Assembly (NCBI GenBank): GCA_964453665.1
Contig: CAYVQT010000006.1
Coordinates: forward strand, 1,976 to 65,975
From: an uncultured Dehalococcoidia bacterium
GTDB taxonomy: Bacteria; Chloroflexota; Dehalococcoidia; SZUA-161
Length of the DNA stretch: 64,000 bases
Reading direction: 5' to 3'
Under the pieces are notes generated by a model. It saw nothing but the letters and a program-made list of their open reading frames with translations, searched no databases and had not been told where the DNA came from. Positions 31,619-48,334 of this stretch are shown here, piece after piece. The position numbers and the translations under genes are program-made. Position 1 is the stretch's first letter; each line of letters opens with the position of its first letter.

Positions 31619-31856
31619 CGTCCTGTTAGTTATAGATATGAAGACTACACCAAGATGCAAGAGTACCAATCGGGGGTGAAAGTACAACTCAGATGACCTT
31701 GATAAATCCCGGTATCACTGCGCAACTCCTCAACACCAATCTGGGTGCTCCCCCTCTTAAACACGTACATGGGTTTAACATAAACGTAATGTGTTTGTAA
31801 CAATCCAGCGATATTGTTTACATCAGGCAGCAACTAACCGAGAGGATGTCTTTTGA

Positions 31857-31885
31857 TTGACATATTATCCGATGTCGCTAATAAT
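31857..31885 (+). promoter_or_regulatory. Candidate promoter for the ferredoxin-GltS operon
   Basis: TTGACA (31857-31862), a 17-nt spacer, then AATAAT (31880-31885). Confidence 0.4.
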
Positions 31886-31895
31886 TATCATGAAC

Positions 31896-31928
31896 CCGCA
31901 ATAACCCGGGGCAGTCAGGTTATTGCGG
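31896..31928 (+). other. Perfect 11-bp stem-loop in the 5' leader of the ferredoxin gene
   Basis: CCGCAATAACC (31896-31906) pairs with GGTTATTGCGG (31918-31928) around an 11-nt loop. There is no T-tract. Confidence 0.5.
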
Positions 31929-31991
31929 CTTGAGTATGTTTACTGAATCTGCATCATATATTCTTTATAATTACGATGTCGGGGGCCAACA

Positions 31992-32441
31992 TTGAGGAGA
32001 GTACTCGTCAAGGAAGAGGTCTGCATGGGCTGTGGCCTTTGCCGCGTCTATTGCCAGGTCGAACACTCCAACTCTAAGGACATAATTAAGGCTTTCAAGC
32101 GCGAGGCTAATCGCCCATTGCCCAGGATTCGCGTTGAGAGAAATGGAGAGACCTGCTTTTCTATTCAGTGTCGCCATTGCGATGAGCCCTGGTGTGTTTA
32201 TTCATGCCTTACAGGAGCTATGCGCAGGGACCGGTCAAGCGGCGCAGTGACCATTGACGCGGAGAAATGCATTGGGTGCTGGACCTGTATTCTGGCTTGC
32301 CCTTATGGAGCATTGACAAAGGATGATAACAGGAAGGTTGTCGCCAAGTGTGACCTCTGTCCTGATCATGAGGTGCCGGTTTGTGTTGCCAACTGCCCTA
32401 ACGAAGCGCTAGTTCTCTGCGTGGACGGGGAAGAAAAGTGA
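31992..32441 (+). CDS. Polyferredoxin (four Cys clusters, [4Fe-4S]-type)
   Basis: The four Cys clusters are CMGCGLCRVYC, CRHCDEPWCVYSC, CIGCWTCILACP and CDLCPDHEVPVCVANCP. Confidence 0.85.
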   Translation: MRRVLVKEEVCMGCGLCRVYCQVEHSNSKDIIKAFKREANRPLPRIRVERNGETCFSIQCRHCDEPWCVYSCLTGAMRRDRSSGAVTIDAEKCIGCWTCILACPYGALTKDDNRKVVAKCDLCPDHEVPVCVANCPNEALVLCVDGEEK

Positions 32442-32543
32442 TTCGGATAATCGGCTGTGGGGCTGGAAATCCGCTATGAGCATTGCAATGCTCACCATGA
32501 AGGATAATAATGCTGTTTTTTAAAATAACCAAGATTCAAGACA

Positions 32544-32576
32544 CCGTTCATGGTGAGCTTGTCGAACCATGAACGG
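32544..32576 (+). repeat. Perfect 11-bp stem-loop inside the 232-nt intra-operon spacer
   Basis: CCGTTCATGGT (32544-32554) pairs with ACCATGAACGG (32566-32576). It is followed by CAGGGCTCAGGGC (32607-32619), whose near reverse complement GCCCTGAGCCTG occurs at 16416-16427. Confidence 0.55.
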
Positions 32577-32673
32577 CTCTTCGACAGGACTGCCCTGATT
32601 TTATTGCAGGGCTCAGGGCGAATTGTTCAGGTCCTATTTTAGGAGCAATGGCGAGGTTGAAGAGGTGGATGAT

Positions 32674-34008
32674 ATGACAAAAGCAGAGCTAATTGAAACG
32701 CGATACCTCATCATCGGGAATTCGGCCGGTGGCATCGGAGCCGCCGAAGCGATACGCGAGTCAGACAAAGTGGGTTCTCTCACCATAGTCTCTGACGAAC
32801 CCTATCCGAGCTATTCCCGTCCGCTTATCTCAAAGTATCTAACCAGGGAGCGCGTACTCGACGGCATGCTCTTTCGCCCGCCTGATTTCTACGAGCTGAA
32901 CAATATCAACACCCTGCTTGGTGTAAAGGTTATAAGCTTGAACCTTAGCGAGCATACCGCCGAACTCGAAAGCGGTGAGATTATTACCTGGGAGAAGCTT
33001 CTGATCGCCAGTGGCGGAGTACCTATAGTCCCCGGCGTTGTCGGAATAGAGAAAAGGGGCGTGTTCAACTTCATTACCCTTGACGACACCAAGGCGATCG
33101 ATGAGTTTCTCGACGGTTCCAATGAAGCTGTGGTTATAGGCGGTGGACTCATCGGTATCAGCGTAACCGAGGCGCTGGTGAAAAGAGGAGCTAAGGTCAC
33201 TGTGGTGGAAATGAAGGAGAGAATCCTGAATACCATCCTCGACGAGCAGGCGTCCTTGATTGTTGAGGGAACCCTCAAGGAGTCTGGGGTCAGGATCGTT
33301 ACGGATAGTACGGTAGCTGAGATCGTAGGCAAGGAGTGGGTAACAGGTGTAGTGCTGGACAATGAGGAGGACATATCCTGCAACCTGGTGGTAGTGGCGA
33401 TAGGTGTACTGCCACGCACCGAGCTTGTAAAGGGAACGGACATCGAGGTGAGACGCGGCATAGTGGTAGACCGCAATATGACTACGAGCCACCCCGATGT
33501 CTATGCCTGCGGGGACGCAGCCGAGGCCTATGATTTCGTCTATGGCACAAACCGACTGACCCCTATCTGGCCTAACGCTTACATAGGAGGCAGGATCGCA
33601 GGTCTTAACATGGCTGGCATTAAAACTGAATACCCCGGTGGCACAGCTATGAATTCGCTGAATTACTTCGGGATTGACATCGCTGCGGCGGGCATAGCCA
33701 CCCCCCCGGATGACGACGGTTATGAGTCCATAAGCAGCCAGGAGGAAGACATCTACAAGAAGCTCGTCCTGAAAGACAATGTCATAGTAGGGATGATATG
33801 CATTGGCGATATTGAGAAGTCAGGGATACTATTCAGCCTGATGAGAGATAGGGTTAATGTGTGCGACTTCAGGCAGACGCTGCTGGCGGATGACTTCGGT
33901 CTGGTATCGTTGCCCCGGAAGCTGTGGCAGGAGCGATTAGGAGCGCCGCAGGGGCGGGTTTTGGAACTACCCACCGAAGATATTGGAGAGGATGTCTCCG
34001 ATGAGTAA
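32674..34008 (+). CDS. FAD-dependent pyridine-nucleotide-disulfide-family oxidoreductase (NADH-oxidase-like)
   Basis: YLIIGNSAGGIGAAEAIRE is the FAD site and AVVIGGGLIGISVTEAL the NAD(P) site. ACGDAAEA is also present. The ATG at 32674 sits 6 nt after GAGGTG. Confidence 0.8.
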   Translation: MTKAELIETRYLIIGNSAGGIGAAEAIRESDKVGSLTIVSDEPYPSYSRPLISKYLTRERVLDGMLFRPPDFYELNNINTLLGVKVISLNLSEHTAELESGEIITWEKLLIASGGVPIVPGVVGIEKRGVFNFITLDDTKAIDEFLDGSNEAVVIGGGLIGISVTEALVKRGAKVTVVEMKERILNTILDEQASLIVEGTLKESGVRIVTDSTVAEIVGKEWVTGVVLDNEEDISCNLVVVAIGVLPRTELVKGTDIEVRRGIVVDRNMTTSHPDVYACGDAAEAYDFVYGTNRLTPIWPNAYIGGRIAGLNMAGIKTEYPGGTAMNSLNYFGIDIAAAGIATPPDDDGYESISSQEEDIYKKLVLKDNVIVGMICIGDIEKSGILFSLMRDRVNVCDFRQTLLADDFGLVSLPRKLWQERLGAPQGRVLELPTEDIGEDVSDE

Positions 34009-34032
34009 TAACCTGGTTTTGGAGCGCCGAGG

Positions 34033-35184
34033 ATGAATGACTTAAACAAGATAAATAATCCCTACTCCGAAGGTAAGGTTATAGATGCCTGCTCTATCTT
34101 CGGGATGATGGATACCGCAGGTAACTGCTTCTCCGGAGAGAACGTTATTAAGGCCATCGCCAATATGCACTTTCGCGGCAATGGCCTGGGCGGCGGTTTT
34201 GCCATCTACGGGCTCTACCCGCAATATCCCGCTCACTACGCTTTCCACGTAATGTACCTCAGCCACGAGGGGAAGGCCGAGGTAGAATCTTTCCTCAAGC
34301 AGCGATTCCACATCGAAGCTGCTGAGGAGGTGCCGACCCGAGCGACGCCTGCTATCATGAACCCTCCTCTTGTATGGCGCTACTTCCTCGAAGTAAAACA
34401 CGATAAGTGTGATAAAAATTCAGAGGACAATTATGTCGTAGACAGGGTCATGGAGATCAACACCGATATTAAGGACTCCTTCGTCTTCTCCAGCGGGAAG
34501 AACATGGCGGTGTTCAAGGGCGTCGGATATCCCGAGGACATAGCCGAATACTTCTGCCTGGAGCAGTACAAGGGATACCTGTGGACAGCCCACGGTAGAT
34601 TTCCCACCAACAGCCCCGGCTGGTGGGGTGGGGCACACCCCTTCAATATCCTTGACTGGACCGTGGTGCACAATGGGGAGATATCCTCTTACGGTATAAA
34701 CCGGCGATACCTGGAGGGATTTGGCTACCATTGCACCATGCAGACCGATACCGAGGTGGTAGCCTATGCCATCGACCTCCTGATTCGAAGGCACGACCTT
34801 CCAATTGAGATAGTAGCAAAGATACTGGCCCCACCTTTCTGGGATGATATAGAGCGTAGCCCCGAGCGTGAGCAAAAGCTGTTTCGCACTCTACGCCAGG
34901 TATATGGCAGTCTGCTATTGAACGGCCCTTTCACAGTAATAATAGCGCACCGGGGTGAAATGATAGGGCTCACTGACAGAGTAAGGCTGCGCCCGCTCAC
35001 CGTAGGAACGAAAGGCACCACGCTCTACCTCTCCTCGGAGGAGTCGGCCATTCGTCTGGTTTGCCCTGATCTCGAGCGGGCCTGGATTCCCGTGGGCGGC
35101 GAACCCATCGTTGGAAGCCTTGAAAGACCTCTCGGTGCCAAGGAGCTCGCTGTTACAGGAGAGATAAAACCTCGTGTTAATTAA
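34033..35184 (+). CDS. Archaeal-type glutamate synthase, glutamine amidotransferase (class II, Ntn) subunit
   Basis: There is a short propeptide before CSIFGMMD. RGNGLGGGF and HGRFPTNS...GAHPF are present. Confidence 0.85.
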   Translation: MNDLNKINNPYSEGKVIDACSIFGMMDTAGNCFSGENVIKAIANMHFRGNGLGGGFAIYGLYPQYPAHYAFHVMYLSHEGKAEVESFLKQRFHIEAAEEVPTRATPAIMNPPLVWRYFLEVKHDKCDKNSEDNYVVDRVMEINTDIKDSFVFSSGKNMAVFKGVGYPEDIAEYFCLEQYKGYLWTAHGRFPTNSPGWWGGAHPFNILDWTVVHNGEISSYGINRRYLEGFGYHCTMQTDTEVVAYAIDLLIRRHDLPIEIVAKILAPPFWDDIERSPEREQKLFRTLRQVYGSLLLNGPFTVIIAHRGEMIGLTDRVRLRPLTVGTKGTTLYLSSEESAIRLVCPDLERAWIPVGGEPIVGSLERPLGAKELAVTGEIKPRVN

Positions 35185-35232
35185 AAAAGGGGATTCCCAT
35201 AAGGAAGGCAGTATCCGAAGGAGGGGCCGAAG

Positions 35233-36738
35233 GTGAAAACCTATCTGCCGCCAAAGTTTATAGTTGAGCGAGACCCTGAGCGCTGTATCCAGTGTCAGGT
35301 GTGTGTTGACCAGTGCAGTTTCGACACACATTACTACGATGCTGAGGACGACGAGGTTAGAAGCCGCGAGGGTAGCTGCGTCGGCTGCCATCGCTGTGTC
35401 CTCTTTTGTCCCACTAATGCCCTGAATGTAAGAGGCGTTCCACTGGACTACAGAGATAACTATAACTGGCGTCCCGAAATCATCGAGGACATCGTCAAGC
35501 AGGCCGAGACCGGAGGCGTCCTTCTTACGGGGATGGGCAACGACAAAGAGTATCGCGTCTATTGGGACCACCTGGTTCTTAACGCCAGCCAGGTAACCAA
35601 CCCGTCAATAGACCCGCTAAGAGAGCCGATGGAACTCACCACCTATATCGGTCGAAAACCAGACAGGGTCGATATAGACCCCGACTCCGTGAGCATTAAA
35701 ACGGAGCTTGCGCCGCAGGTCAGGATCGAGGTGCCGGTTATGTTCTCTGCTATGTCCTACGGCGCAGTGAGCTTGAATGTGCACGAGTCGCTGGCACGGG
35801 CAGCTACCGAGGCGCAGACGCTGTGGAACACCGGCGAGGGAGGACTCCATCCCAAGCTATATAAATACGGGGCTAACACAATCGTCCAGGTGGCATCAGG
35901 GCGGTTTGGTGTGCATGCGGACTACCTTGACGCAGCCAGAATAGTAGAGATAAAGATCGGTCAGGGGGCAAAACCCGGTATAGGGGGGCACCTTCCCGGC
36001 GAAAAAGTAAGCGCCGATGTTTCCTGGACCAGAATGATTCCGCAGGGTACAGACGCCTTATCACCTGCGCCGCAGCACGACATCTATTCCATCGAGGACC
36101 TGGCTCAGCTTGTACACGCTTTAAAAGAGGCCACTAACTATACCAAGCCGATATCAGTAAAGATAGCCGCTGTCCATAACTCGGCCGCTATTGCCAGCGG
36201 GATGGTACGAGCGGGGGCGGACATGATAGTGCTCGATGGTCTGCGGGGCTCAACCGGCGCTGCGCCCAAAATCATACGCGACAATGTCGGCATTCCCATC
36301 GAGATGGCTCTCGCCTCAGTAGATACCCGCTTGAGGCAGGAAGGCATCCGTAATCAGGCCTCCGTTGTGATTGCCGGGGGAATCAGGAACAGCGGAGATG
36401 TGGCCAAGGCGATCGCCCTCGGCGCCGATGCCGTATATATCGGGACAGCGGCTCTCGTCGCCCTGGGTTGCTGTCTCTGCCAGCAGTGCCACACAGGGAA
36501 GTGCGCCTGGGGTATATGCACAACCGATCTCAGGCTGACCAAGAGGATCAATCCTGACATCGGAGCCAGACGGCTGGCCAACCTGCTGCGCGGTTGGAAC
36601 CTGGAGCTAAAAGAAATACTGGGCGGTATGGGCGTCAACGCCCTTGAGAGCCTGAGAGGCAACCGCCTGCACTTGAGAGGGGTCGGACTGACGGATACGG
36701 AACTCGAAATCCTGGGAGTAAAAATGGCAGGTAGCTGA
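35233..36738 (+). CDS. Archaeal-type glutamate synthase, FMN/Fe-S (GltB domain 2) subunit with an N-terminal 2x[4Fe-4S] ferredoxin module
   Basis: CIQCQVCVDQC and CVGCHRCVLFCP form the ferredoxin module. EIKIGQGAKPGIGGHLPGEKV and the C-terminal CCLCQQCHTGKC are present. The GTG start follows GGAGGGG. Confidence 0.9.
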   Translation: MKTYLPPKFIVERDPERCIQCQVCVDQCSFDTHYYDAEDDEVRSREGSCVGCHRCVLFCPTNALNVRGVPLDYRDNYNWRPEIIEDIVKQAETGGVLLTGMGNDKEYRVYWDHLVLNASQVTNPSIDPLREPMELTTYIGRKPDRVDIDPDSVSIKTELAPQVRIEVPVMFSAMSYGAVSLNVHESLARAATEAQTLWNTGEGGLHPKLYKYGANTIVQVASGRFGVHADYLDAARIVEIKIGQGAKPGIGGHLPGEKVSADVSWTRMIPQGTDALSPAPQHDIYSIEDLAQLVHALKEATNYTKPISVKIAAVHNSAAIASGMVRAGADMIVLDGLRGSTGAAPKIIRDNVGIPIEMALASVDTRLRQEGIRNQASVVIAGGIRNSGDVAKAIALGADAVYIGTAALVALGCCLCQQCHTGKCAWGICTTDLRLTKRINPDIGARRLANLLRGWNLELKEILGGMGVNALESLRGNRLHLRGVGLTDTELEILGVKMAGS

Positions 36739-36739
36739 G

Positions 36740-37513
36740 ATGGCAGAGAACGTTTATCACGAAAACGCAAACCAGGCGGTTAAAATCGACGCCTATGGTG
36801 ACACTCACCGCGAGCTAAACGCCAAGCTGCGGGATGCAGTTTCGAATGGAACCCGGAGGATCGAGCTTCTGAACGTCTATGGGCAGAGATATATCGGAAC
36901 GGACCTGGACAGACCGGTGGATATCGAGATATTCGGTGTTCCCGGCAATGATCTGGGGGCTTTCATGAACGGGCCGAGGATTACTGTCCGCGGTAATGCC
37001 CAGGATGGCTGCGGAAACACTATGAATAACGGGGAGATAATAGTCCACGGTCATGCAGGGGACATCATCGGCCTCTCGGCCCGGGGAGGAAAGATCTTTG
37101 TCCGGGAAGATGTCGGCTACAGGGCCGCCATCCATATGAAGGAGTACCAGGACAAGAAGCCAGTGCTGGTCATCGGAGGCACCGCCCAGGACTTCTTCGG
37201 CGAATATATGGCGGGGGGAATCGTGATCCTGCTCGGCCTCAATCTGAAGGAAGGAGAACGCCACAAGGCCAGGTTCATCGGAACCGGGATGCACGGGGGG
37301 GTCATCTACCTGAGGGGCAGTGTAGATGATTTCCAGCTAGGCAAAGAGGTGGGCGTTGCCGAGCTGGAAGAGGATGACCGCCAGCTTGTCCGGCAATTCG
37401 TCAGCGAGTATGCGTCCCATTTCGATTGCGACGCCGAGGTGATACTGAAGAGCAATTTTATCAAGCTGTTCCCCCTTTACCTCAGACCTTACGGGAGACT
37501 CTACGCGTACTAA
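36740..37513 (+). CDS. Archaeal-type glutamate synthase, GXGXG (GltB domain 3 / FwdC-like) subunit
   Basis: It has repeated beta-helix GxGxG-type turns (GVPGNDLGAFMNG, VRGNAQDGCGNTMNNG, VHGHAGD). The start lies 1 nt after the upstream stop. Confidence 0.85.
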   Translation: MAENVYHENANQAVKIDAYGDTHRELNAKLRDAVSNGTRRIELLNVYGQRYIGTDLDRPVDIEIFGVPGNDLGAFMNGPRITVRGNAQDGCGNTMNNGEIIVHGHAGDIIGLSARGGKIFVREDVGYRAAIHMKEYQDKKPVLVIGGTAQDFFGEYMAGGIVILLGLNLKEGERHKARFIGTGMHGGVIYLRGSVDDFQLGKEVGVAELEEDDRQLVRQFVSEYASHFDCDAEVILKSNFIKLFPLYLRPYGRLYAY

Positions 37514-37657
37514 GCGAGGGCTCGAAAGATAATAGGCCTGGGTAATTTTCTTTCTTCCCTGTTCAATCTTCCAGATAAACGTTTGTCCTCCTCACACGGA
37601 ATAAGCTATTTCATATACCGCCAAACATATAAATTGTAGCAGACGATTAAAGGATAT

Positions 37658-37687
37658 TTGCAAAATGAATTACGAATTTGATATACT
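37658..37687 (+). promoter_or_regulatory. Candidate internal promoter ahead of korD
   Basis: TTGCAA (37658-37663), an 18-nt spacer, then TATACT (37682-37687). A 7-bp stem-loop, CTGCACC/GGTGCAG (37707-37739), follows in the leader. Confidence 0.35.
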
Positions 37688-37822
37688 GAGACCTGTGGAC
37701 GAGTGACTGCACCTGACGGATTGCTTCCTTACGGTGCAGCTAAGACCTGACAAGCGATATCATGGTGGTAAATCCTCTGGAACCTATGACTACCGCGGGA
37801 TATCAATATAGAAGGTACTGCT

Positions 37823-38089
37823 ATGAAGTTGTGGAGAACACCATTCGATCAGGCGGAAAAGGCCACCAGGCCAGCGAAAGTCCTGATCGACAAGGAAAGA
37901 TGCAAAGGATGCGGCTTCTGCGTGGAGTTCTGCCCGAGAGGGACGCTTGTGATGAGCGACGAACTGAGCTCCAAGGGCTATACTCTTGCTGCAGTAGCGG
38001 ACGAAAGCAAGTGCCTCGGCTGCGGCCTGTGTGATATCCTCTGCCCCGAATTCGCCATCCACCTGGTATTAAACAACAACGAAAGCTAG
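37823..38089 (+). CDS. korD: 2-oxoacid:ferredoxin oxidoreductase delta subunit (2x[4Fe-4S])
   Basis: CKGCGFCVEFCP and CLGCGLCDILCP are present. It is 88 aa and sits immediately upstream of the alpha subunit. Confidence 0.8.
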   Translation: MKLWRTPFDQAEKATRPAKVLIDKERCKGCGFCVEFCPRGTLVMSDELSSKGYTLAAVADESKCLGCGLCDILCPEFAIHLVLNNNES

Positions 38090-38101
38090 CAGGATTATTG
38101 T

Positions 38102-39253
38102 ATGTCTGAAGACGGAGTGCTCTGCGGAACGTTCTTTATGAACGGCGATGTGGCCTGCGCCGAAGGGGCTATCAGCGCGGGTTGTCGTTTCTTCGCCGGC
38201 TACCCCATCACGCCAGCCACAGAGGTGGCCGAGAGAATGAGTGAACGACTCCCTCACGTGGGAGGTATCTATATCCAGATGGAGGATGAGATCGCCTCTA
38301 TGAATGCCATACTGGGTGCATCCTGGGCGGGGAAGAAAGCAATGACATCCACCTCCGGCCCCGGATTCAGCCTGATGATGGAGAATCTAGGCCTGGGAGT
38401 GATGCTGGAAACACCCTGCGTCCTGGTCAATATACAACGGGCCGGCCCGTCTACCGGGTTGCCCACGCTGGCGGCCCAGGGGGACATGATGCAAGCGCGA
38501 TGGGGCTCACACGGCAGCTACGAGATTATCGCCCTTGCACCCAGCTCTCCGCAGGAGATATTCGATTTTACTATTACAGCGTTTAACCTTTCGGAGAGAT
38601 ATCGGGTTCCTGTGCTGGTGATGTCCGACGAAGCCGTAGGTCATATGAGCGAGAAGGTTGTGATACCTCGCATAGCACCCGAAGAGCTTGTAAGCAGGCG
38701 ACGCCCGGAAGTAGCGCCGGAGGAATATCTGCCCTACAAAGCCGACGGGGATCTAGTTCCACCTATGGCTATAGCCGGCGAAGGTTACCGCTTCCACGTC
38801 ACCGGCCTTACCCACGATGAGAGGGGTTACCCTATAATGACCGCAGAGGTCCAGGACCAGCTTGTGCGCCGTCTGGTGGATAAAATCAGGCTCAACAGGA
38901 AAGACATAATAAGCTATGAAGAGATAGGGATTGAAGATGCAGAAGTCATAGTCTGCGCCTACGGAATTACCGCGCGCGTCGCCCGTCTCGCAGTGCAACA
39001 GGCACGCGATGCAGGAATTCGAGCGGGTATGCTGCGGCTGATAACAGTCTGGCCATTTGCCGAAGACCGCATCAGAGAGCTAGCGGAGCAGGTCAAGGCA
39101 TTCGTGGTCCCCGAGATAAACTACGGCCAGATTGTACTAGAGGTCGAGAGATGTACAGCAGGAAAGGCCAGTACGCTACTCGTGCCCCATATGGGAGGCG
39201 GCGTGCACCATCCACTGACCATCCTGAAAGCCATAAAGGAAGCAGTGCAATGA
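38102..39253 (+). CDS. korA: 2-oxoacid (probably 2-oxoglutarate):ferredoxin oxidoreductase alpha subunit
   Basis: NGDVACAEGAISAGCRFFAGYPITPATE and TSGPGFSLM are present. The substrate assignment rests on architecture and context only. Confidence 0.85.
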   Translation: MSEDGVLCGTFFMNGDVACAEGAISAGCRFFAGYPITPATEVAERMSERLPHVGGIYIQMEDEIASMNAILGASWAGKKAMTSTSGPGFSLMMENLGLGVMLETPCVLVNIQRAGPSTGLPTLAAQGDMMQARWGSHGSYEIIALAPSSPQEIFDFTITAFNLSERYRVPVLVMSDEAVGHMSEKVVIPRIAPEELVSRRRPEVAPEEYLPYKADGDLVPPMAIAGEGYRFHVTGLTHDERGYPIMTAEVQDQLVRRLVDKIRLNRKDIISYEEIGIEDAEVIVCAYGITARVARLAVQQARDAGIRAGMLRLITVWPFAEDRIRELAEQVKAFVVPEINYGQIVLEVERCTAGKASTLLVPHMGGGVHHPLTILKAIKEAVQ

Positions 39254-40098: not shown

Positions 40099-40149
40099 CC
40101 AGCATAAAGGAGTCCGGGGCTATTCGGCAATAAAACACGGTGAAATAAC

Positions 40150-40713: not shown

Positions 40714-43700
40714 GGGAATCGCGGTAATAGGTGATGGTGCGGGCGCGGCACAGGCAGCCCTCACACTGACAGAGCTGGGTGTAGAGGTCAAGCTAATCAT
40801 GTCCTCTCAGGCACTGAGCTTAGACAATGTCACTGACAGCGCCTCAGTCACTGCCCCGGAGAAACTATGTAGCGTGTGGCCCCTGCTACTGCGTGCGGCG
40901 AGCCACCCACTGGTTACCCTTCATACCAACTCCAGGGTCAGGGCCATAGCCGGCAAACAGGGCAAATTCACGGTAAGGCTAACCACATACCCTCGCTATG
41001 TGCAAGCGGATTTATGCACGGCCTGCGGCCGCTGCGAGGAGGCGTGCTCGGTACAGGTACCATTCATCCTGGACGGCCGAAAGGTAACCCGGAGTGCCAT
41101 CCACGCACCCGTTCCAGGTAAAAAAACGATACCCTCAGCCTACTATATAGAGAAAAGCGGGGTCGCACCCTGTCGGGCGTCATGCCCACTCGGTATAAAT
41201 GTTCAAGGATTTGTATCGCTGCTGTCTAAGGGCAAGGTGGATGAGGCTCTAAGCCTTATAAACGAAGTGGCGCCTCTCGCTGGAGTGCTCGGACGCGTAT
41301 GCACCCATCCCTGCGAGGATAATTGCAAACGCAGTGAAGTTGACAGCCCTGTATTCATCCCAGCCCTACATCGCTATGCTGCTGACAATGCACCCAGCGG
41401 CATCAACTATAAACGTAAGGCCCCTGCCAGGTCCCGCAAGGAAAAAATTGCTATCGTCGGAAGCGGCCCCGCCGGGCTTGCCGCCGCCTGGGAACTGGCA
41501 CGCCGCGGTTATGGACCCACCATATTCGAATCCCATGCGGTGGTAGGTGGTATGGTGGCTACAGGTATTCCCAGATTCCGTCTGCCCCTCGAGGTCCGGG
41601 AGAGAGAAGTGGCGGCGATCAAAGACCTGGGTGTGGATATAATGACCGGGGTGATGGTAGGCCGCGATGTGACAATTTCCGATCTGAGAGAACGGGGATA
41701 CCGAGCTTTCTTCCTGGCCATAGGCGCCCACCAGAATAGGGGTCTGGGCATCCCGGGTGAAGAACTCGAAGGCGTAGTGGACGCCATCTCCCTGCTGTTC
41801 GCACTGAACCTGAAAGTGGGCGCCTCAGTAGGCTCCAATGTGGTAGTCATTGGCGGCGGCAACAGCGCCGTGGATTCCGCCAGAACCGCCAAGAGGCGGA
41901 GCAAGGGAGTTGTGCGTATACTCTACCGCCGCACAATGGAAGAGATGACCGCAGTAGCAGACGAGGTGCAGGAGGCAATAAACGAAGGCATATCTATTGA
42001 ATATCTAACAAATCCGCTGGAGATTCTGGGCGATGGAACCAAGGTAACCGGAATACGCTGCCAGCGGATGAAAATGGGCGATATGGGAGAGGATGGCCGC
42101 CGCAGGCCCGAGCCTATACCGGGCTCGGAGTTCGTGATCGACGCGGACCACGTGGTGATAGCTATAGGACAGCGGCCCAACACCTCAATGCTCAACATCA
42201 GGTGGCTTGAGATCGATAGCGACGACTCTACTATAAAAGTGGACCCTTTAACACTCGAGACCAGGATTCCTGGCATCTTTTCCGGTGGCGATTGTGTCAC
42301 AGGCCCCAACAACGTCGTCGAAGCTGTTGCCGCCGGACTGCGAGCCGCAGAGTCAATAGACCGGTATTTAAGAGGACGCGATTTGAGGAAGGGACGCAGT
42401 CTGGAGAAACCTCAAACTGTTGAGGTCGATATCAGGGAAAGAGATGCTGCCTACTACAAGCGAGCCCGTATGCCCGCTATCCCGCCTTATAAGAGGATGG
42501 GTAAATTTGAGGAAATAGCCCTGGGATTACCATTAGACGTAGGGAGACGCGAGGCCGAGCGCTGCCTCAACTGTGCCTTATGCAGTGAATGCATGGAATG
42601 TGAACAGGTGTGCGAACTGGGGGCGGTTCTCCACAAGGACAGGGAGGAGCACGTAGATATCGGAGCCGAACTCATAATCAATTTTGCCTCGGACGACGGT
42701 GAAAGTGAATACTACCTCGAGGTGCCTGAAACCGCCCAGAGCATTGCCACGCAGACCCCGAGACCGGGTGTCTATACAGTGGAGTTATTCGAAGGCCACA
42801 GCCTGCAAAGCGAGCTCGCACAGGCCTCCGCTACAGCCCTTGAAGCCGCCGCTGAACTCAGGCTCAAAGAGGGAGCCATACCCGCAGCTCAGGATAACCC
42901 AGATGGCTCAGATGACCATTCGGACCATAATCTTTGGAAGGCAGAAGCCGTCAGTACCGACAAAGCGCGCATCGGTGTTTTCCTGTGTCGCTGCGGTGGC
43001 AGCATTAACTCAGTGATTGATTTCAATCAAGTGACCAATGAACTCTTACAACTTCCCGGCCTCTGCACCGTTCAGGAGACAGCGCAGGCGTGCAGCGAGG
43101 AGGGAGCGAACAGGATGGCGGCCCGAGCTGCGGAGTGGAAGCTTGACAAGATGGTGCTTGCCGCCTGCCGATGCTGCGGGCTGGATCAGATATGCTTCAG
43201 CTGCACCGACAGGCGAGTGATGTGCCAGCAGAACCTTGGCAATTACATCGCCACATACCTGGGAAGCAATGTGGAGTTCGTAAATATACGTGAGCAATGC
43301 GCTCTAGTTCACGAAGATGACCCCGCTGGCGCTACACGCAAGGCAATAGACATAATTTCGGCGGGCGTCGCCCGGTCCAAAAAAGCCTCTGCTGTTACCC
43401 GCGAGGAGCGTCCTCTGACTGGAGGTGCGCTAATACTGGGTGCAGGGATTCGAGGGCTTGCAGCAGCAAAGAACCTGGCCTCCCAAATTTATTCCGTAAC
43501 AGTGATTGCCGGCCCCGAAGCAGACACTGCCGGAGAATCGCAGCGCTCCGAATACCTGGAAAACAGAGAGAGCCTACTTAAACAGCTCGATGAGCAGGGT
43601 ATCACTGTCAGGCCGTGGCCTCAGAACCTGGAACTGGACGGCTCGCCGGGCAATTACAATGCTGTGCTGAATGACGGCTCACAGAACAGCCAGGTTGAAG

Positions 43701-44233
43701 CTGGAGCGATAATACTGGACATCGGGAAGATGCAAGGGGAAGTCCCCCCAGAAGTCATCACCAAACCGGGAAAAAGCCGCCTCGGCCGCATATTTACCCG
43801 AAGGATCGGCTCCAAAGGCCTGGAGGATATGCAATTCGCCATCAAGGATACTGCAGGTATATTCGTCATGTATCCGGATGAAGAAGACACACCGTGGGAA
43901 CAGGTCCTTAAGGGAGCGTCTATGGCGGCTAGAGCGTCAGGTTATCTGTACCGGGGTAGCCTTAGCCCAATGTCCAACGCAGTTAGCATCGACAGCAAAC
44001 TATGTCGCGGCTGCGGCGACTGTGCGGCCGTATGCTCTTACATAGAGATGAGAGAATCCGGCAATGGTACAGCTTGCGCCTATGTCGACCGGGCGTTGTG
44101 CCTCGGCTGTGGAGTTTGTATCGCACACTGTCCCACAGGTGCCATAACTCAAGCTTTCCAGAGCGACGCAAACCTAAGCTCCACGCTTGAAGCGTTGCTG
44201 GGAAAGACATCCTATATGGTTGAAGTGGCATGA
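40706..44233 (+). CDS. 1175-aa mosaic flavo-iron-sulfur protein. It combines HdrA-like segments, a GltD/NfnB-like NAD(P)H:FAD module, an HdrA N-domain-like Cys module and a C-terminal 2x[4Fe-4S] ferredoxin.
   Basis: The motifs, in order, are:
- IAVIGDGAGAAQAAL
- CTACGRCEEAC
- CRASCPLGINV...GRVCTHPCEDNC (GltD N-terminus)
- IAIVGSGPAGLAAAWELARRG and VVVIGGGNSAVDSA
- CLNCALCSECMECEQVC
- RIGVFLCRCGGSIN...FVNIREQCALVH (HdrA N-domain-like)
- ILGAGIRGLAAA
- CRGCGDCAAVC and CLGCGVCIAHCP
The start overlaps the korC stop by 8 nt. Confidence 0.8.
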   Translation: MARGIAVIGDGAGAAQAALTLTELGVEVKLIMSSQALSLDNVTDSASVTAPEKLCSVWPLLLRAASHPLVTLHTNSRVRAIAGKQGKFTVRLTTYPRYVQADLCTACGRCEEACSVQVPFILDGRKVTRSAIHAPVPGKKTIPSAYYIEKSGVAPCRASCPLGINVQGFVSLLSKGKVDEALSLINEVAPLAGVLGRVCTHPCEDNCKRSEVDSPVFIPALHRYAADNAPSGINYKRKAPARSRKEKIAIVGSGPAGLAAAWELARRGYGPTIFESHAVVGGMVATGIPRFRLPLEVREREVAAIKDLGVDIMTGVMVGRDVTISDLRERGYRAFFLAIGAHQNRGLGIPGEELEGVVDAISLLFALNLKVGASVGSNVVVIGGGNSAVDSARTAKRRSKGVVRILYRRTMEEMTAVADEVQEAINEGISIEYLTNPLEILGDGTKVTGIRCQRMKMGDMGEDGRRRPEPIPGSEFVIDADHVVIAIGQRPNTSMLNIRWLEIDSDDSTIKVDPLTLETRIPGIFSGGDCVTGPNNVVEAVAAGLRAAESIDRYLRGRDLRKGRSLEKPQTVEVDIRERDAAYYKRARMPAIPPYKRMGKFEEIALGLPLDVGRREAERCLNCALCSECMECEQVCELGAVLHKDREEHVDIGAELIINFASDDGESEYYLEVPETAQSIATQTPRPGVYTVELFEGHSLQSELAQASATALEAAAELRLKEGAIPAAQDNPDGSDDHSDHNLWKAEAVSTDKARIGVFLCRCGGSINSVIDFNQVTNELLQLPGLCTVQETAQACSEEGANRMAARAAEWKLDKMVLAACRCCGLDQICFSCTDRRVMCQQNLGNYIATYLGSNVEFVNIREQCALVHEDDPAGATRKAIDIISAGVARSKKASAVTREERPLTGGALILGAGIRGLAAAKNLASQIYSVTVIAGPEADTAGESQRSEYLENRESLLKQLDEQGITVRPWPQNLELDGSPGNYNAVLNDGSQNSQVEAGAIILDIGKMQGEVPPEVITKPGKSRLGRIFTRRIGSKGLEDMQFAIKDTAGIFVMYPDEEDTPWEQVLKGASMAARASGYLYRGSLSPMSNAVSIDSKLCRGCGDCAAVCSYIEMRESGNGTACAYVDRALCLGCGVCIAHCPTGAITQAFQSDANLSSTLEALLGKTSYMVEVA

Positions 44234-44643
44234 GCGAGTCAGCGATACATTTAGTCGTGTTCGCCTGCAACTGGGATGGCCTCAGTTGCCTGGAAGAGGC
44301 AGCCAGAGGGGGATTAGGCTACCCTGCCTCTGTGAGGGTAGTCAGGGTAAGCTGTCTCTCACGGTTGCATCAAGGCCTTATGCTCAAGGCCTTTGAACTG
44401 GGTGCGGATGGTGTAATGCTTCTGGGATGTGAACCGGGCAACTGCCAGTATGACATCGATGCCGGACTTATTACGCAAGAGTTCGAAAAAGCGCAGACAG
44501 TATTAAAGCTGCTTGGGCTGGGAGAAGAAAGACTGGTCCTCTGTCAGACAGCTCGCGGGGATGGGCCAGGATTTGTAAGGCGGGTAACAGACTTTGCCAA
44601 AGAGATCGAGCAGATGCAACCTGCCGTCACCGCTGGAGCCTAG
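44230..44643 (+). CDS. mvhD: MvhD/FlpD-like [2Fe-2S] protein
   Basis: VVFACNWDGLSCLEEAA...VRVVRVSCLSRL...GADGVMLLGCEPGNCQY is present. There is an ATGA overlap with the upstream gene. Confidence 0.85.
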   Translation: MSESAIHLVVFACNWDGLSCLEEAARGGLGYPASVRVVRVSCLSRLHQGLMLKAFELGADGVMLLGCEPGNCQYDIDAGLITQEFEKAQTVLKLLGLGEERLVLCQTARGDGPGFVRRVTDFAKEIEQMQPAVTAGA

Positions 44644-44717
44644 CAGCTAAAGGCTCACTAAGCCATCTATGATGAATATAGAAGAATTATTTTTTAAGGA
44701 CAGGATACAGATCAAAG

Positions 44718-45863
44718 GTGTTCAATACTGAACGAGAGATAAGTGAAAGCAAGATACGCCTCTGCCTTGACTGCGGCAAGTGCACGGTGGTATGTCCGGT
44801 CGCCCAGAACGACCCGGCATTCAACCCGCGTCTCATAGCACAGAGAAGGTTATCGCAAAATAAACACAGTCCGCAGGACGAGACAATCTGGGAATGCCTC
44901 AGTTGCTACATGTGCGTTGAACGCTGCAACTACCGTGTGGATTTTCCCGCATTTATTCACAGTCTGAGAGCCGAGGCGCTCACTGAAGGCGCTGAATTGC
45001 AGTGCAGCCACGGCGGAACGCTCCAGGCGCTCCAGCACCTGATGGCGCGTGAAGACCTGCAGCAGGACCGACTGAACTGGCTCCCGCAGGACATTGAACT
45101 GTCTGAACAAAACGACGTAATATTCTTTGTAGGCTGTGCTCCCTATTTTGATACCGTGTTCAGCGATCTGGAAGTGAACACCCTCGGCGGTGTAGAAGGT
45201 GCGCTAAGGCTGCTTAACCGCGCCCAGGTGCCCTTTAACATTCTTGCCAATGAACGCTGCTGCGGGAGAGACCTGCTGCTCCAAGGCGATCGAGAAGGAT
45301 TTCTGGCTCTGGCGAAAGCCAATATGCGCGAGTTCAGTAAACACGGCGTCAGCAAGATTATCACTAACTGTCCTGAATGCTACCATACGCTGAAGGTTGA
45401 ATACCCCGATATGCTGGGGGCTACGGGTATCCAGGTAATGCATCTGACAGAGGTTATAGCACCGCTCGTTCAAAGCGGAGACCTTAGTCTCGGCGAACTT
45501 GAGCAAAGGGTCACATATCACGATCCCTGCACGCTGGGCAGATGCTCCAGGATATTCGATGAGCCCCGCCAGATTCTACGGGCTGTATCAGGACTAGACA
45601 TAGTAGAGATGGAGCAGAACCGTGAGAAGGCGCTGTGCTGCGGTGCAAGCCCCTGGGTGCACTGCGGTGCGGTGAACCGGCAGATACAGGAGCAGCGCCT
45701 CGCCCAGGCTGCGGCCACTGGGGCAGATATACTTGTGACCGCATGCCCCAAGTGCCAGATACATCTGAGGTGCGCCCAAAAAAGTCACGATGGTAAAATT
45801 CCCCAGGTCGAGATCCAGGACATAGCATTTCTGGCAGCCCGGGCTCTGGATAGTAGGAGGTGA
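44718..45863 (+). CDS. HdrC-HdrB fusion (HdrD-like soluble CCG-domain Fe-S protein)
   Basis: The N-terminal CLDCGKCTVVCP and CLSCYMCVERC form the HdrC-like part. Two CCG boxes follow (ERCCGRD; ALCCGAS) with flanking Cys residues (VGCAPYF, HDPCTLGR, CPKCQ). Confidence 0.8.
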   Translation: MFNTEREISESKIRLCLDCGKCTVVCPVAQNDPAFNPRLIAQRRLSQNKHSPQDETIWECLSCYMCVERCNYRVDFPAFIHSLRAEALTEGAELQCSHGGTLQALQHLMAREDLQQDRLNWLPQDIELSEQNDVIFFVGCAPYFDTVFSDLEVNTLGGVEGALRLLNRAQVPFNILANERCCGRDLLLQGDREGFLALAKANMREFSKHGVSKIITNCPECYHTLKVEYPDMLGATGIQVMHLTEVIAPLVQSGDLSLGELEQRVTYHDPCTLGRCSRIFDEPRQILRAVSGLDIVEMEQNREKALCCGASPWVHCGAVNRQIQEQRLAQAAATGADILVTACPKCQIHLRCAQKSHDGKIPQVEIQDIAFLAARALDSRR

Positions 45864-48334
45864 GTTGGTTGGCTGAAGAGGAACTGAGAATAGGCGTATT
45901 TGTATGCGATTGTGGACTCAACATAGCAGGGTCGGTTGACACGGAGGAGGTGCGGGAAGCAGCAGAAAAGCTGCCCGATGTCGTGGTCTCGGTGAGAAAT
46001 AAATATACCTGCGCCGACCCCGGGCAGGAAGAGATAAAGAGGCACATACGCGAATATAATCTGAACCGCGTGGTGGTGGCCTCCTGTACCCCCCTGCTCC
46101 ATGAGTCAACCTTCCGCAACTGCGTGGCAGAGGCCGGGCTTAACCCTTACCTCTTTTCGATGGCCAGCATCAGGGAGCATTGCAGCTGGGTACACCTCCA
46201 CGACCGTGAGGCCGCCACCAGGAAGGCTAAAGATATCGTTAAGATGGCAGTAGCCCGCGCTCGCTTACTCGAAGCCCAGAAGGAGATGGAGATACCAGTC
46301 ACCGATGCCGCTCTGGTGATCGGCGGTGGGGTGGCTGGAATTCAGGCAGCCCTGGACCTGGCCGATGCCGGGCACCAGGTATACCTGGTGGAAAAGGAGC
46401 CCTCTATCGGGGGCATAATGGCGCAACTGGACAAGACATTCCCAACCATGGACTGTTCGATATGTGTGCTCGGGCCCAAGATGATGGACGTGGACCGCCA
46501 CCCTCTAATCGAACTACTCGCCTACAGCGAAGTCGAGGCGGTTTCAGGCTACGTCGGCAATTTCAAGGTACGTGTGCGCAGAAAAGCACGATATGTGAAC
46601 GAGGACGATTGCACCGCCTGCGGCGACTGCGCTGAGGTCTGCCCGGTGGTATTGCCCGATGAGTTTCAGCAGGGCTTTTCCTCGCGCAAAGCAGCTTACA
46701 TACCGCTACCTCAAGCAGTGCCCCCAGCCTATCTTATCGATATGGAGCACTGCCTGGGTAATAACCCCATAGCCTGTGACAAGTGCCTTAAAGCCTGCGA
46801 GAAGCAATGTATCGACCTGAATATGCATGACCGGATAGTTGAATTGGATGTAGGCACTATAATCGTGTCTACGGGCATGGGGATATACGACCCCACTCCA
46901 CTTGACGAGTACGGTTACACGCGCTTTGAAAATGTTATCACCAGCATGGAGTTTGAACGGTTGATATGCGGCGGTGGACCCACCGACGGACATCTGGTGC
47001 GCCCCTCTGACCACCGGACACCGGCGCGCATCGGCTTCATCCAGTGCGTTGGCTCCAGGACAGAGAACCGCGGCAATCCCTATTGCTCCAACGTTTGCTG
47101 TATGAATACGGTGAAGGACAGCCTGCTTATAAAAGAGCATCACCCAGACGCAGAGATCTATGTCTTCTACATGGACATCCGAGCCTTCGGCAAAGGCTTC
47201 GAAGATTTATTCCGGCGTTCCAAGGAGGAGGACGTTCACTACATCCGCGGCCTGCCCGGTGAAATTACCGAAGACCCTGTTACAAAAAACCTGCGCATCA
47301 AAGTAGAAAACACCACCGCAGCGCGTGTAGAGGAATACGAGCTGGACCTGGTGATCCTGTCGTTAGGCCTGGAGCCCAAGGCTGACCTGAAGCAGCTAGC
47401 CAACATGCTGAATATCTCCCAGACCAGCGATGGCTTCGTAATGGAGGCTCATCCCAAGCTGAGGCCGGTGGATGCGCCCACGCCGGGTATCTTCTTCGCC
47501 GGCTGTGTGGAGGCACCCAAAGACGTAAAGGACAGCGTAACCCAGGCCGGGGCGGCAGCCGCCAGAAGCTCAATTATACTGAACTCAGAGATCCTCAAAA
47601 TGGAGGCCCTCAAGGCAGTAATAGACCTTGACAAATGCACGTCCTGCGGCGTCTGCGCCAAGGTCTGCCCCTACGGGGCGATCAAGGTAGATATTAAGGC
47701 CAAGACAGGCGCGCAGGTGGTGGCCGCGGCATGTGCCGGCTGCGGCACCTGCGCTGCGGAGTGCCGCTTTGACGCCATAACCATGCAGCACTTCAGCGAT
47801 GCACAGATACTGACCCAGATAGACGCCGCTCTGGAGGAAGAGCCTGAGAAGAAGATCATAAGCTTCCTGTGTAACTGGTGCAGCTATGCGGGAGGTGATC
47901 TGGCGGGGGTCTCGAGGCTGCAGTATCCGCCCAACAACCGATTCATCCGCACCATGTGCAGCGGAAGAGTGGACGAGAAGTTCATCCTCCACGCCTTCGA
48001 GAAAGGAGCTCCCCTGGTGCTTCTCTCGGGATGCCACATAAATGACTGCCACTACATCAGCGCCAACCACTGGACCAAGCGCCGCGCAGAGAAGCTATGG
48101 AAGCGCCTGGAAAAGCTCGGAATCCGGCAGGAACGCCTACAACTGCAATGGGTCAGCGCCGCCGAGGGCCCCAGGTTCGCCCAGCTAATGCGCGATTTGG
48201 AGGAGATGCGGCAGCAGGTCACGCCCGAGGAGATAGAGCACACCAAGCAGGTGCTTGCCGAGCAGAGGCTGGCGAAGGCAAAGGAAGAGGAGGAGGAGGC
48301 GGAATCTCTCGAACCACAGGTTGAAGCAGCATAA
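45860..48334 (+). CDS. hdrA: HdrA-MvhD fusion (heterodisulfide-reductase A-like flavoprotein with a C-terminal MvhD domain)
   Basis: IGVFVCDCGLNIAG, ALVIGGGVAGIQAALDLADAG, GGIMAQLDKTFPTMDCSICVLGPKM, CTACGDCAEVCP and CTSCGVCAKVCP are present. The C-terminal MvhD part is ISFLCNWCSYAGGDLAG...LLSGCHINDCHY. The GTG start overlaps the upstream TGA; the alternative TTG at 45869 sits 8 nt after AGGAGG. Confidence 0.9.
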   Translation: MSWLAEEELRIGVFVCDCGLNIAGSVDTEEVREAAEKLPDVVVSVRNKYTCADPGQEEIKRHIREYNLNRVVVASCTPLLHESTFRNCVAEAGLNPYLFSMASIREHCSWVHLHDREAATRKAKDIVKMAVARARLLEAQKEMEIPVTDAALVIGGGVAGIQAALDLADAGHQVYLVEKEPSIGGIMAQLDKTFPTMDCSICVLGPKMMDVDRHPLIELLAYSEVEAVSGYVGNFKVRVRRKARYVNEDDCTACGDCAEVCPVVLPDEFQQGFSSRKAAYIPLPQAVPPAYLIDMEHCLGNNPIACDKCLKACEKQCIDLNMHDRIVELDVGTIIVSTGMGIYDPTPLDEYGYTRFENVITSMEFERLICGGGPTDGHLVRPSDHRTPARIGFIQCVGSRTENRGNPYCSNVCCMNTVKDSLLIKEHHPDAEIYVFYMDIRAFGKGFEDLFRRSKEEDVHYIRGLPGEITEDPVTKNLRIKVENTTAARVEEYELDLVILSLGLEPKADLKQLANMLNISQTSDGFVMEAHPKLRPVDAPTPGIFFAGCVEAPKDVKDSVTQAGAAAARSSIILNSEILKMEALKAVIDLDKCTSCGVCAKVCPYGAIKVDIKAKTGAQVVAAACAGCGTCAAECRFDAITMQHFSDAQILTQIDAALEEEPEKKIISFLCNWCSYAGGDLAGVSRLQYPPNNRFIRTMCSGRVDEKFILHAFEKGAPLVLLSGCHINDCHYISANHWTKRRAEKLWKRLEKLGIRQERLQLQWVSAAEGPRFAQLMRDLEEMRQQVTPEEIEHTKQVLAEQRLAKAKEEEEEAESLEPQVEAA

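Follow-up and report, generated by a model that had tools for sequence, protein, structure and literature searches.

A conserved Dehalococcoidia operon links a four-subunit 2-oxoacid:ferredoxin oxidoreductase to HdrL-type heterodisulfide reductase genes and, in one lineage only, adjoins a glutamate synthase block

Does a long run of redox genes read in one direction encode one metabolic system or two? The question is raised by a 64,000-bp stretch of DNA (here called the window) from an uncultured Dehalococcoidia bacterium (GenBank assembly GCA_964453665.1, contig CAYVQT010000006.1, positions 1,976 to 65,975 of the forward strand), which matches contigs from several metagenome assemblies and whose proteins have their closest relatives in metagenome-assembled genomes (MAGs) of Chloroflexota/Dehalococcoidia. 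Reading of open reading frames (ORFs) together with domain searches identified an unbroken run of 13 genes on the + strand at ∼31.9 to 48.3 kb, encoding a split glutamate synthase (GltS) with a ferredoxin and a flavoprotein, a four-subunit 2-oxoacid:ferredoxin oxidoreductase (OFOR; korDABC), and proteins related to heterodisulfide reductase (Hdr). The initial annotation had counted 14 genes and proposed a dedicated KOR-Hdr-GltS assembly. The domain content that it listed, from the ferredoxin to a terminal HdrA-MvhD fusion, was recovered by domain and profile searches; the assembly was not borne out. As judged from sequence comparisons, the 16-kb run appears to be two separate transcription units side by side, a split GltS unit (∼31857 to 37513) and a kor-hdr operon (37658 to 48334).

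The case for the kor-hdr operon comes from its neighborhoods in other genomes. The order korDABC-hdrL-mvhD-hdrCB-hdrA2, where hdrL is the gene for a large HdrA/GltD mosaic protein, was colinear in all 14 genome loci of Chloroflexota/Dehalococcoidia that an HdrL alignment retrieved, one genome per species. A second set of loci was drawn from metagenomes with KorA as the only query, a sample unbiased for both GltS and Hdr. Among the 39 informative loci of this set (those extending at least 1.5 kb past korC), hdrL lay directly after korC in 30, mvhD-hdrCB-hdrA followed without hdrL in two, other hdr genes were nearby in two, and no hdr genes were found in five. Overall, the order recurred colinearly in more than 40 independent loci, and both colinearity and tight junctions persisted where HdrL identity fell to 35 to 40%. 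The korC-hdrL gap had a median of 4 nt over 43 loci, measured 28 nt or less in 40 of them and was an 8-nt overlap in eight; the other hdr junctions had median gaps of −9 to +20 nt. Genes flanking the operon differed completely between distant relatives. Across the 14 genome loci, KorA (67 to 93% identity) and HdrA2 (73 to 93%) were the slow-evolving members, and HdrL (40 to 81%), MvhD, and HdrCB evolved faster. Homologues of HdrA2 and HdrL numbered in the thousands, nearly all of them from Chloroflexota, and by this sampling the operon is very common in Dehalococcoidia. No kor genes were found near HdrL-like genes outside Chloroflexota (Desulfobacterales, Thorarchaeota, Bathyarchaeota, Atribacteria, and others). 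The adjacency of korC and the mosaic gene, from which the initial annotation had argued for a dedicated complex, is thus not unique to this genome, and the comparisons strongly support a real Kor-Hdr gene linkage.

Such linkage could reflect co-regulation only, with Kor and Hdr co-transcribed as separate enzymes that share a soluble ferredoxin pool. The KorA loci lacking downstream hdr genes fit this explanation, as does the promiscuity of Hdr modules, which neighbor Fdh, MetFV, and GltS-like proteins elsewhere. No Kor-Hdr fusion occurred among the 150 best KorC matches of 1.84 billion representatives either; the fusions present among these relatives joined gamma subunits to other OFOR subunits. 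Against it, the overlap or near-abutment of korC and hdrL is kept in nearly all loci, gene order is fixed over wide divergence, and the operon encodes no soluble ferredoxin besides KorD. We consider mere co-regulation improbable.

Variant operons were also observed. In L143 (9580 to 16753), L144, and L140 the arrangement is korDABC-mvhD-hdrCB-hdrA without hdrL; the HdrA frame of L143 is broken once by an in-frame stop (ORFs at 14285 to 14902 and 14918 to 16753), possibly a selenocysteine codon. In L153 (4917 to 13558), korDABC is followed by three HdrA/HdrL-like ORFs (430, 426, and 562 amino acids) and then mvhD and hdrCB, the first HdrA-like ORF overlapping the korC stop by 4 nt. Because these variants exist, the OFOR-Hdr association is broader than the exact korDABC-hdrL-mvhD-hdrCB-hdrA2 form.

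Conserved co-location of GltS with kor-hdr was not found. In tblastx comparisons, window positions 22632 to 30905 (a DUF169 gene, acd, gap, eno, and xerD, ending at a nifV-like gene) were colinear with the closest relatives, L081 (KorA 93% identical to that of the window) and L001 (a Chloroflexota MAG), after which the match jumped straight to 37652. DNA alignments with the same two loci set the edges of the intervening sequence at ∼30990 and ∼37650. This genome-specific block of ∼6.66 kb (30990 to 37650), which holds an ORF at 31034 to 31618, the ferredoxin gene, the flavoprotein gene, and the three GltS pieces, is missing between the nifV-like gene and korD in both L081 and L001. Among the KorA-related metagenome loci, none of the 46 that extend 1.5 kb or more ahead of kor had GltS genes there, nor did any of the 19 that extend 6 kb or more. 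Elsewhere in Dehalococcoidia, flavoprotein homologues (68 to 85% identical) adjoin a ferredoxin and GltS pieces in nitrogen-assimilation neighborhoods. That of L166 contains amtB, glnB, glnA, and an NAD synthase gene, that of L167 an NrpR-like gene, asnB, amtB, and glnB, and the flavoprotein is kept beside the GltS pieces in both. Since GltS is absent at kor in relatives and has an amtB/glnB/glnA context elsewhere, the block reads as an ordinary nitrogen-assimilation module, self-sufficient because it has its own reductase and ferredoxin, and its position beside kor as a rearrangement private to this lineage.

These comparisons bear directly on the full model of the initial annotation, in which bifurcation-driven 2-oxoglutarate synthesis by a KOR-Hdr-GltS assembly was wired to glutamate formation. 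The GltS block, the kor-hdr operon, and the nifV/citrate-synthase-like gene are neighbors here and all touch 2-oxoglutarate metabolism, and in L033 and L027 operons for HdrL-type proteins also contain GltS-like pieces. Those two clusters, however, are MetFV-type systems without Kor; the GltS genes of the window have promoter-like sites of their own, a conserved kor promoter separates them from kor, and neither the closest relatives nor the metagenome loci keep them in place. As a conserved assembly the model is contradicted, and we regard it as very improbable. The GltS neighbor therefore gives no basis for inferring kor-hdr function. We also rejected the HdrA/GltD mosaic as the GltD small subunit of the adjacent GltS, as the linkage is not conserved and the GltS block encodes a reductase of its own. 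A mobile island was rejected as well: xerD lies 1.3 kb upstream, but in a stretch that is syntenic with relatives. The cluster shared by L033 (1571 to 15562; a Bacteroidia MAG) and L027 (∼550 to 14300; a Lentisphaerales MAG) is colinear in the order mvhD, metF, two GltS-FMN-like genes (FMN, flavin mononucleotide), a fusion of glutamine amidotransferase (GATase) and GXGXG domains (881 amino acids), hdrC, hdrB, a gene for a 1,488-amino-acid HdrA/NfnB mosaic, mvhD, and metV. Its gene content marks it as a MetFV-HdrABC-MvhD type system, with GltS-like pieces and an HdrL-type HdrA among its members.

All genes of the GltS unit are on the + strand. The initial annotation had started the first gene at 31857. 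No gene starts there, because the frame holds three in-frame stops; instead, a promoter-like site (TTGACA-17-AATAAT, 11 of 12 matches; 31857 to 31885) begins at that position, ahead of the ferredoxin gene. The start of that gene was placed at ATG 32025, because the L166 homologue matches (85.5%) from residue 1. Its 138-amino-acid product (32025 to 32441) carries four [4Fe-4S] motifs and is a Fer4_11, DmsB/HydN-like protein by Pfam and profile matches. After a gap of 232 nt (32442 to 32673) follows an FAD/NAD(P)H-dependent (FAD, flavin adenine dinucleotide) pyridine-nucleotide-disulfide oxidoreductase of the PadH/NirB-N-like type with a Rubredoxin_C domain (32674 to 34008), whose best NCBIfam match, PadH NF045765, scored 301 bits, below the cutoff of 475. 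The ferredoxin is likely the electron carrier and this flavoprotein the reductase of the GltS unit. The GltS pieces are a class II GATase identified by Pfam (34033 to 35184), an FMN/synthase protein with an N-terminal 2x[4Fe-4S] domain (35233 to 36738; Glu_synthase, E = 1e−135), and a GXGXG protein also identified by Pfam (36740 to 37513), which begins, as annotated, 1 nt after the FMN piece. These separate GATase, FMN, and GXGXG proteins constitute an archaeal-type split glutamate synthase. The arrangement, with its ferredoxin and pyridine-nucleotide-disulfide oxidoreductase beside the three pieces, resembles the Thermotoga/Archaeoglobus type, in which a split GltS accompanies a ferredoxin and an NADH-oxidase-like flavoprotein. 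Compared with the GltS loci of L166 and L167, the window copy has moved away from the amtB-glnB-glnA context and lacks hisH-like and hisF-like genes: L166 (8381 to 8995) and L167 (8379 to 8999 and 11505 to 12272) have an extra hisH-like class I GATase gene and a hisF-like gene interleaved with the GltS pieces, and no remnants of these were found in the 232-nt gap or the rest of the window's GltS block. At the left end of the genome-specific block, the ORF at 31034 to 31618 (194 amino acids) has hydrophobic N-terminal segments and no family match, lies in a low-GC stretch (0.47), and was found only in contigs of this same genome.

The border between the two units lies in the 309-nt gap at 37514 to 37822, for which the initial annotation had correctly noted a promoter-like site. 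The site is TTGCAA-18-TATACT with an extended −10 TG (37658 to 37687, + strand); it is conserved and is read as the promoter of kor-hdr. In L081 and L001, DNA identity resumes exactly at its −35 hexamer and runs through the leader to the korD ATG, and the same element (ATTTG[CT]AAA...TTTGATATACTGA) is present 55 to 130 nt upstream of korD in L006, L007, L084, and L089. The leader of ∼135 nt (37688 to 37822) is ∼80% identical to those of L081 and L001, contains the inverted repeat CTGCAC...GTGCAG, and may be a regulatory leader. An Rfam scan of the whole window returned two tRNAs only (56854 to 57028) and no riboswitch or leader family upstream of korD. At the downstream end of the operon, a perfect-consensus promoter-like site (48449 to 48478, + strand) precedes the next unit, rpsU-yqeY.

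All four OFOR subunits are encoded on the + strand, with Pfam matches for alpha, beta, gamma (POR), and delta and with the thiamine pyrophosphate (TPP) and cluster motifs, including GDGD and the Cys motifs, read in the sequence. The delta subunit KorD (37823 to 38089) has 2x[4Fe-4S] and matches OGOR_delta and OorD best, both below cutoff. The alpha subunit KorA (38102 to 39253), with POR_N and PFOR_II domains, passed the generic 2-oxoacid alpha model NF006412 with 581 bits against a cutoff of 411. The TPP-binding beta subunit KorB (39250 to 40098) carries GDGD and the cluster cysteines, and the gamma subunit KorC, assigned by Pfam, spans 40150 to 40713 from a TTG or starts at 40195 as in the public gene call. 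Pyruvate, isovalerate, and indolepyruvate models scored far lower than 2-oxoglutarate types, and profile searches thus did not move Kor to a pyruvate or isovalerate class; its best matches were generic 2-oxoacid and 2-oxoglutarate-type models. The closest solved structures were the alpha subunit of the Pyrococcus furiosus 2-keto acid:ferredoxin oxidoreductase (1yd7, for KorA) and 2-oxoglutarate enzymes.

Following korC, the 1,175-amino-acid mosaic HdrL (40706 to 44233, + strand) was mapped by profile and structure-chain sequence matches. Residues 6 to 158 match HdrA residues 147 to 298, and residues 154 to 633 are an NfnB/GltD-like module that contains FAD, an NAD(P)H site, and 2x[4Fe-4S] and interrupts the inserted ferredoxin domain; this module matched NfnB/GltD/DPD chains and profiles NF009410/TIGR01316. 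Residues 751 to 938 match HdrA residues 1 to 177 with an extra Cys-rich loop, and residues 1093 to 1148 form a C-terminal 2x[4Fe-4S] domain, which matches the C-terminal ferredoxin domain of HdrA. With an NfnB/GltD-like module in an HdrA framework and mvhD overlapping its stop by 4 nt, the protein is of the HdrL type. Among 21 homologues, every Fe-S cysteine was invariant, as were GGDC and the NfnB FAD and NAD(P)H motifs, and neither HdrA-derived Rossmann motif (residues 9 to 14 and 910 to 915) was kept as GxGxxG. The nonconserved Rossmann motifs fit an input or scaffold role beside a genuine HdrA2, and HdrL probably takes in electrons from NAD(P)H on an HdrA-derived Fe-S scaffold that is poor in flavin and pairs with HdrA2. 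The Cys-rich loop (CRCCGx3CxxCx6C, residues 821 to 840; within window positions 41166 to 43225) is invariant in the HdrA-N-terminal-like domain and absent from HdrA2, and could bind an additional cluster. Three other metagenomic homologues (P0062, P0082, and P0103; 1,270 to 1,317 amino acids) carry a C-terminal FlpD/MvhD domain, and these HdrL-MvhD fusions support contact between the two proteins.

Three further + strand genes complete the operon. MvhD (44230 to 44643; FlpD family by Pfam and profile) is a [2Fe-2S] electron connector. The soluble, HdrD-like HdrCB fusion (44718 to 45863) combines HdrC and HdrB in a single chain, with CxxCxxCxxxC twice (2x[4Fe-4S]) and C-x-CCG-x-CxxC twice; its best NCBIfam match was TfrB (167 bits, below cutoff). 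Because both CCG motifs are complete, the disulfide-reducing site appears intact. HdrA2 (45860 to 48334) has the Cys, FAD, and ferredoxin domains of HdrA fused to MvhD, with FlpD at residues 666 to 782 and an intact canonical FAD motif, GGGVAG. It passed the NCBIfam HdrA2 model NF040770 (1,189 bits against a cutoff of 1,100, residues 10 to 793), and NCBI likewise names its homologues HdrA2. The junctions read in the sequence agreed with the initial annotation for korA/korB (4 nt), korC/hdrL (8 nt), and hdrL/mvhD (4 nt), as did the sizes of the two larger gaps. The 4-nt hdrCB/hdrA2 overlap holds if GTG 45860 is chosen as the start of hdrA2, and disappears in the public gene call, whose start at 45869 lies 5 nt past the hdrCB stop.

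What could such a set of proteins do? To our knowledge, all characterized HdrA complexes carry out a reversible reaction in which the electron pair of a mid-potential donor is split at FAD, one electron leaving at the level of ferredoxin and the other at that of a disulfide. From the gene content, motifs, order, junctions, and promoter observed here, we infer that korDABC-hdrL-mvhD-hdrCB-hdrA2 may encode one soluble multi-enzyme complex for flavin-based electron bifurcation. NAD(P)H would be oxidized at the NfnB-like FAD of HdrL, where a YRR motif, typical of NADPH sites, is a hint of low weight at NADPH. From there, the Fe-S scaffold of HdrL and the [2Fe-2S] connectors of MvhD would carry electrons to the FAD of HdrA2, the site of bifurcation. 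The high-potential electron would leave via HdrCB to a disulfide, and the low-potential electron via KorD to KorAB, not to free ferredoxin; there an acyl-CoA would be reductively carboxylated, most likely succinyl-CoA to 2-oxoglutarate. HdrL would be the donor module in place of a hydrogenase or formate dehydrogenase, with MvhD as the connector. By established potentials, two electrons at about −320 mV stand against one at about −500 mV plus one at about −140 mV. The chain would be reversible in principle, with 2-oxoacid and thiols yielding NAD(P)H in the reverse direction.

That the Kor-Hdr proteins form one redox complex, with Kor at the low-potential port, seems to us an evenly balanced proposition. 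Given such a complex, we lean slightly to the reductive direction, because a dedicated coupled complex is most needed for scarce low-potential electrons, as in Fdh-Hdr-Fmd; the oxidative direction would fall a little short of an even chance. The full version, a ferredoxin-free supercomplex in which NADPH electrons are wired into the OFOR and succinyl-CoA is carboxylated while a cellular disulfide is reduced (for example, that of a thioredoxin-like protein or a CoA-type disulfide), is put forward tentatively, as unlikely on present evidence. In a second version, drawn by analogy with what has been proposed for class II benzoyl-CoA reductase, 2-oxoacid oxidation could be the donor for bifurcation below ferredoxin potential.

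Several observations weigh against the reductive bifurcating complex. All Kor scores against 2-oxoglutarate-specific models were below cutoff (NF007206, 381 of 579 bits; NF007207, 248 of 364; OGOR_delta, 65 of 125), and the nearest solved Kor relative comes from a peptide-fermenting archaeon, in which such enzymes run oxidatively. The absence of Kor-Hdr fusions among the best KorC matches counts here too. An AlphaFold2 model of HdrL built from a 21-sequence alignment had a mean predicted local distance difference test (pLDDT) score of 55 and a predicted template modeling (pTM) score of 0.43, too poor for a fold search, so the HdrL domain map rests on sequence matches. Since variants without HdrL exist, NAD(P)H is no universal third substrate. 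In agreement with the initial annotation, no hydrogenase, formate dehydrogenase, or disulfide-forming enzyme was found in the 64-kb window, nor were DsrC or methanogenesis genes, and it is the missing disulfide-forming enzyme that tells against the proposal. The GltS neighbor, the one local hint for the reductive direction, lies beside kor in this genome only. An ADP-forming acyl-CoA synthetase alpha gene 13 kb upstream fits catabolic use. Finally, the gene at 29727 to 30974 (− strand) is homocitrate-synthase/NifV-like (TIGR02660, 510 bits against a cutoff of 463) and lies divergent to korD in L001, L081, L084, and L100. NifV-like proteins in Dehalococcoidia can be Re-citrate synthases, which would tie the neighborhood to 2-oxoglutarate metabolism; such a neighbor hints at an oxidative 2-oxoglutarate route that would make a 2-oxoglutarate synthase unnecessary.

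Part of this evidence favors the converse, catabolic arrangement, in which Kor would be the electron donor of a non-bifurcating or confurcating reaction: oxidative decarboxylation of 2-oxoacids, for example in amino acid fermentation, would supply HdrA2/HdrCB directly with low-potential electrons and so reduce a disulfide and, via HdrL, NAD(P)+. In an alternative form, Kor and thiol electrons would be confurcated onto NAD(P)+ as reverse electron transport. The kinship of KorA to the Pyrococcus enzyme, the nifV/Re-citrate-synthase-like neighbor, and the acyl-CoA synthetase gene, which is nearby in L164 as well, all suit a donor role. The HdrL-less variants (Kor, MvhD, HdrCB, and HdrA) suit it also: they need no further partner only for the reaction from 2-oxoacid to disulfide, and their free MvhD, a protein that normally links a donor module to HdrA, comes directly after korC. 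HdrA2B2C2 has robust ferredoxin:heterodisulfide oxidoreductase activity (PMC5296606), and the authors of the Syntrophobacter fumaroxidans proteome favor confurcation for HdrL complexes (PMC5947623). On the other side, an oxidative OFOR could simply reduce free ferredoxin, which makes a translationally coupled complex harder to justify; passing −500 mV electrons to a disulfide wastes energy unless coupled; and no system that regenerates disulfide or consumes thiol is visible. We therefore treat Kor as donor as a possible but rather unlikely explanation.

The bifurcating complex that we propose has partial precedents, the closest in sulfate reducers. The HdrL type was named in Desulfobacterium autotrophicum (HdrL1 to HdrL3), where it is always followed by MvhD (PMC2702500), and S. 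fumaroxidans has an expressed HdrABC/HdrL cluster (Sfum_0819 to Sfum_0824) and an uncharacterized HdrAL/POR cluster (Sfum_0012 to Sfum_0018) that was undetected in proteomes (PMC5947623). As in these HdrL clusters, the window has a large HdrA/NfnB(GltD) fusion followed by mvhD, together with hdrA, hdrB, and hdrC and without a hydrogenase, and NAD(P)H is the proposed substrate (PMC2702500, PMC5947623). Several features set the window apart from them. A four-subunit OFOR takes the place of DsrABC, Fdh, or an Fe-S protein as the partner, HdrC and HdrB form a single chain, and MvhD is fused to HdrA. In HdrL, the second HdrA-like half is shorter and has degenerate Rossmann motifs, and the host belongs to Dehalococcoidia, with no Dsr genes nearby. 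The HdrAL/POR cluster, compared by description only, likewise encodes a 2-oxoacid:ferredoxin oxidoreductase with HdrA/HdrL-type genes; its enzyme is annotated as pyruvate type, and because it has seven genes it probably lacks part of the korDABC-hdrL-mvhD-hdrCB-hdrA2 set. ANME-1 likewise has an HdrA that carries an NfnB insertion (PMC9012536). HdrA2B2C2 of Methanosarcina acetivorans accepts reduced ferredoxin and bifurcates from F420H2 (PMC5296606). The window HdrA is like it in being fused to MvhD and in passing the HdrA2 model. The two systems differ: Methanosarcina uses F420H2 and CoM-S-S-CoB, and Dehalococcoidia are no methanogens; the window operon has HdrL and a free MvhD in addition; and in the proposed model Kor replaces free ferredoxin.

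In-complex channeling to a CO2-fixing enzyme would have its parallel in the Fdh-Hdr-Fmd supercomplex of Methanospirillum hungatei (7bkb), in which bifurcated electrons pass to a CO2-reducing enzyme without free ferredoxin. HdrA chains of 7bkb and of Mvh-Hdr (5odc) matched HdrL. In those complexes electrons come from formate or H2 and reach the acceptor, formylmethanofuran dehydrogenase, via a polyferredoxin. NAD(P)H-linked flavin-based bifurcation to ferredoxin-level electrons is also a feature of FlxABCD-HdrABC (Desulfovibrio) and NfnAB, and the inserted module of HdrL matches the NfnB-type large subunits 4ylf_B and 5jca_L (E = 1e−76 to 1e−85). The Flx NADH module differs, however, and has no OFOR link, and NfnAB has neither an Hdr part, a disulfide site, nor an OFOR link. 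The initial annotation had known of no such assembly. HdrL-MvhD, HdrABC/HdrL, and the OFOR-linked HdrAL/POR had in fact been noted before; the Hdr clusters treated in a deep-sea Chloroflexi paper are different ones (MetFV, Fdh, and IFO). For the combined korDABC-hdrL-mvhD-hdrCB-hdrA2 operon in Chloroflexota no description was found in open-access full text, which, being limited to open-access sources, is weak evidence of novelty. Thus, the window operon appears to bring the HdrL and OFOR-Hdr themes together as a single fixed unit that has a KOR-type OFOR and occurs in another phylum, and it is not categorically new.

Other features of the window lie outside the two units. At 2577 to 4994, a gene for an 805-amino-acid STT3/AglB-like oligosaccharyltransferase, an archaeal/eukaryotic-type N-glycosylation enzyme in a Chloroflexota genome, adjoins glycosyltransferase genes and a polysaccharide flippase-like gene. 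Between eno and gap, a 359-amino-acid protein (25754 to 26833, − strand) matches NF040772 (double-cubane-cluster anaerobic reductases) weakly, with 50 bits, far below cutoff. The two tRNA genes at 56854 to 57028 are 1 nt apart and lie downstream of a DnaC/IstB-like ATPase gene (55214 to 56692).

Dehalococcoidia rank with the most abundant bacteria of anoxic sediments and the subsurface, and nearly everything known of their energy metabolism comes from genomes. The role and the disulfide of bacterial Hdr-like complexes are a long-standing question, to which a fixed Kor partner brings assayable substrates, namely, a 2-oxoacid, CoA, acyl-CoA plus CO2, and NAD(P)H. Direct delivery of bifurcated electrons to Kor would make the operon a second case, after Fdh-Hdr-Fmd, of ferredoxin-free channeling into a CO2-fixing enzyme, and a succinyl-CoA-carboxylating supercomplex, if it exists, would pay for a CO2-fixing step in a new manner. 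If Kor is instead the donor, the operon would explain how Dehalococcoidia dispose of low-potential electrons.

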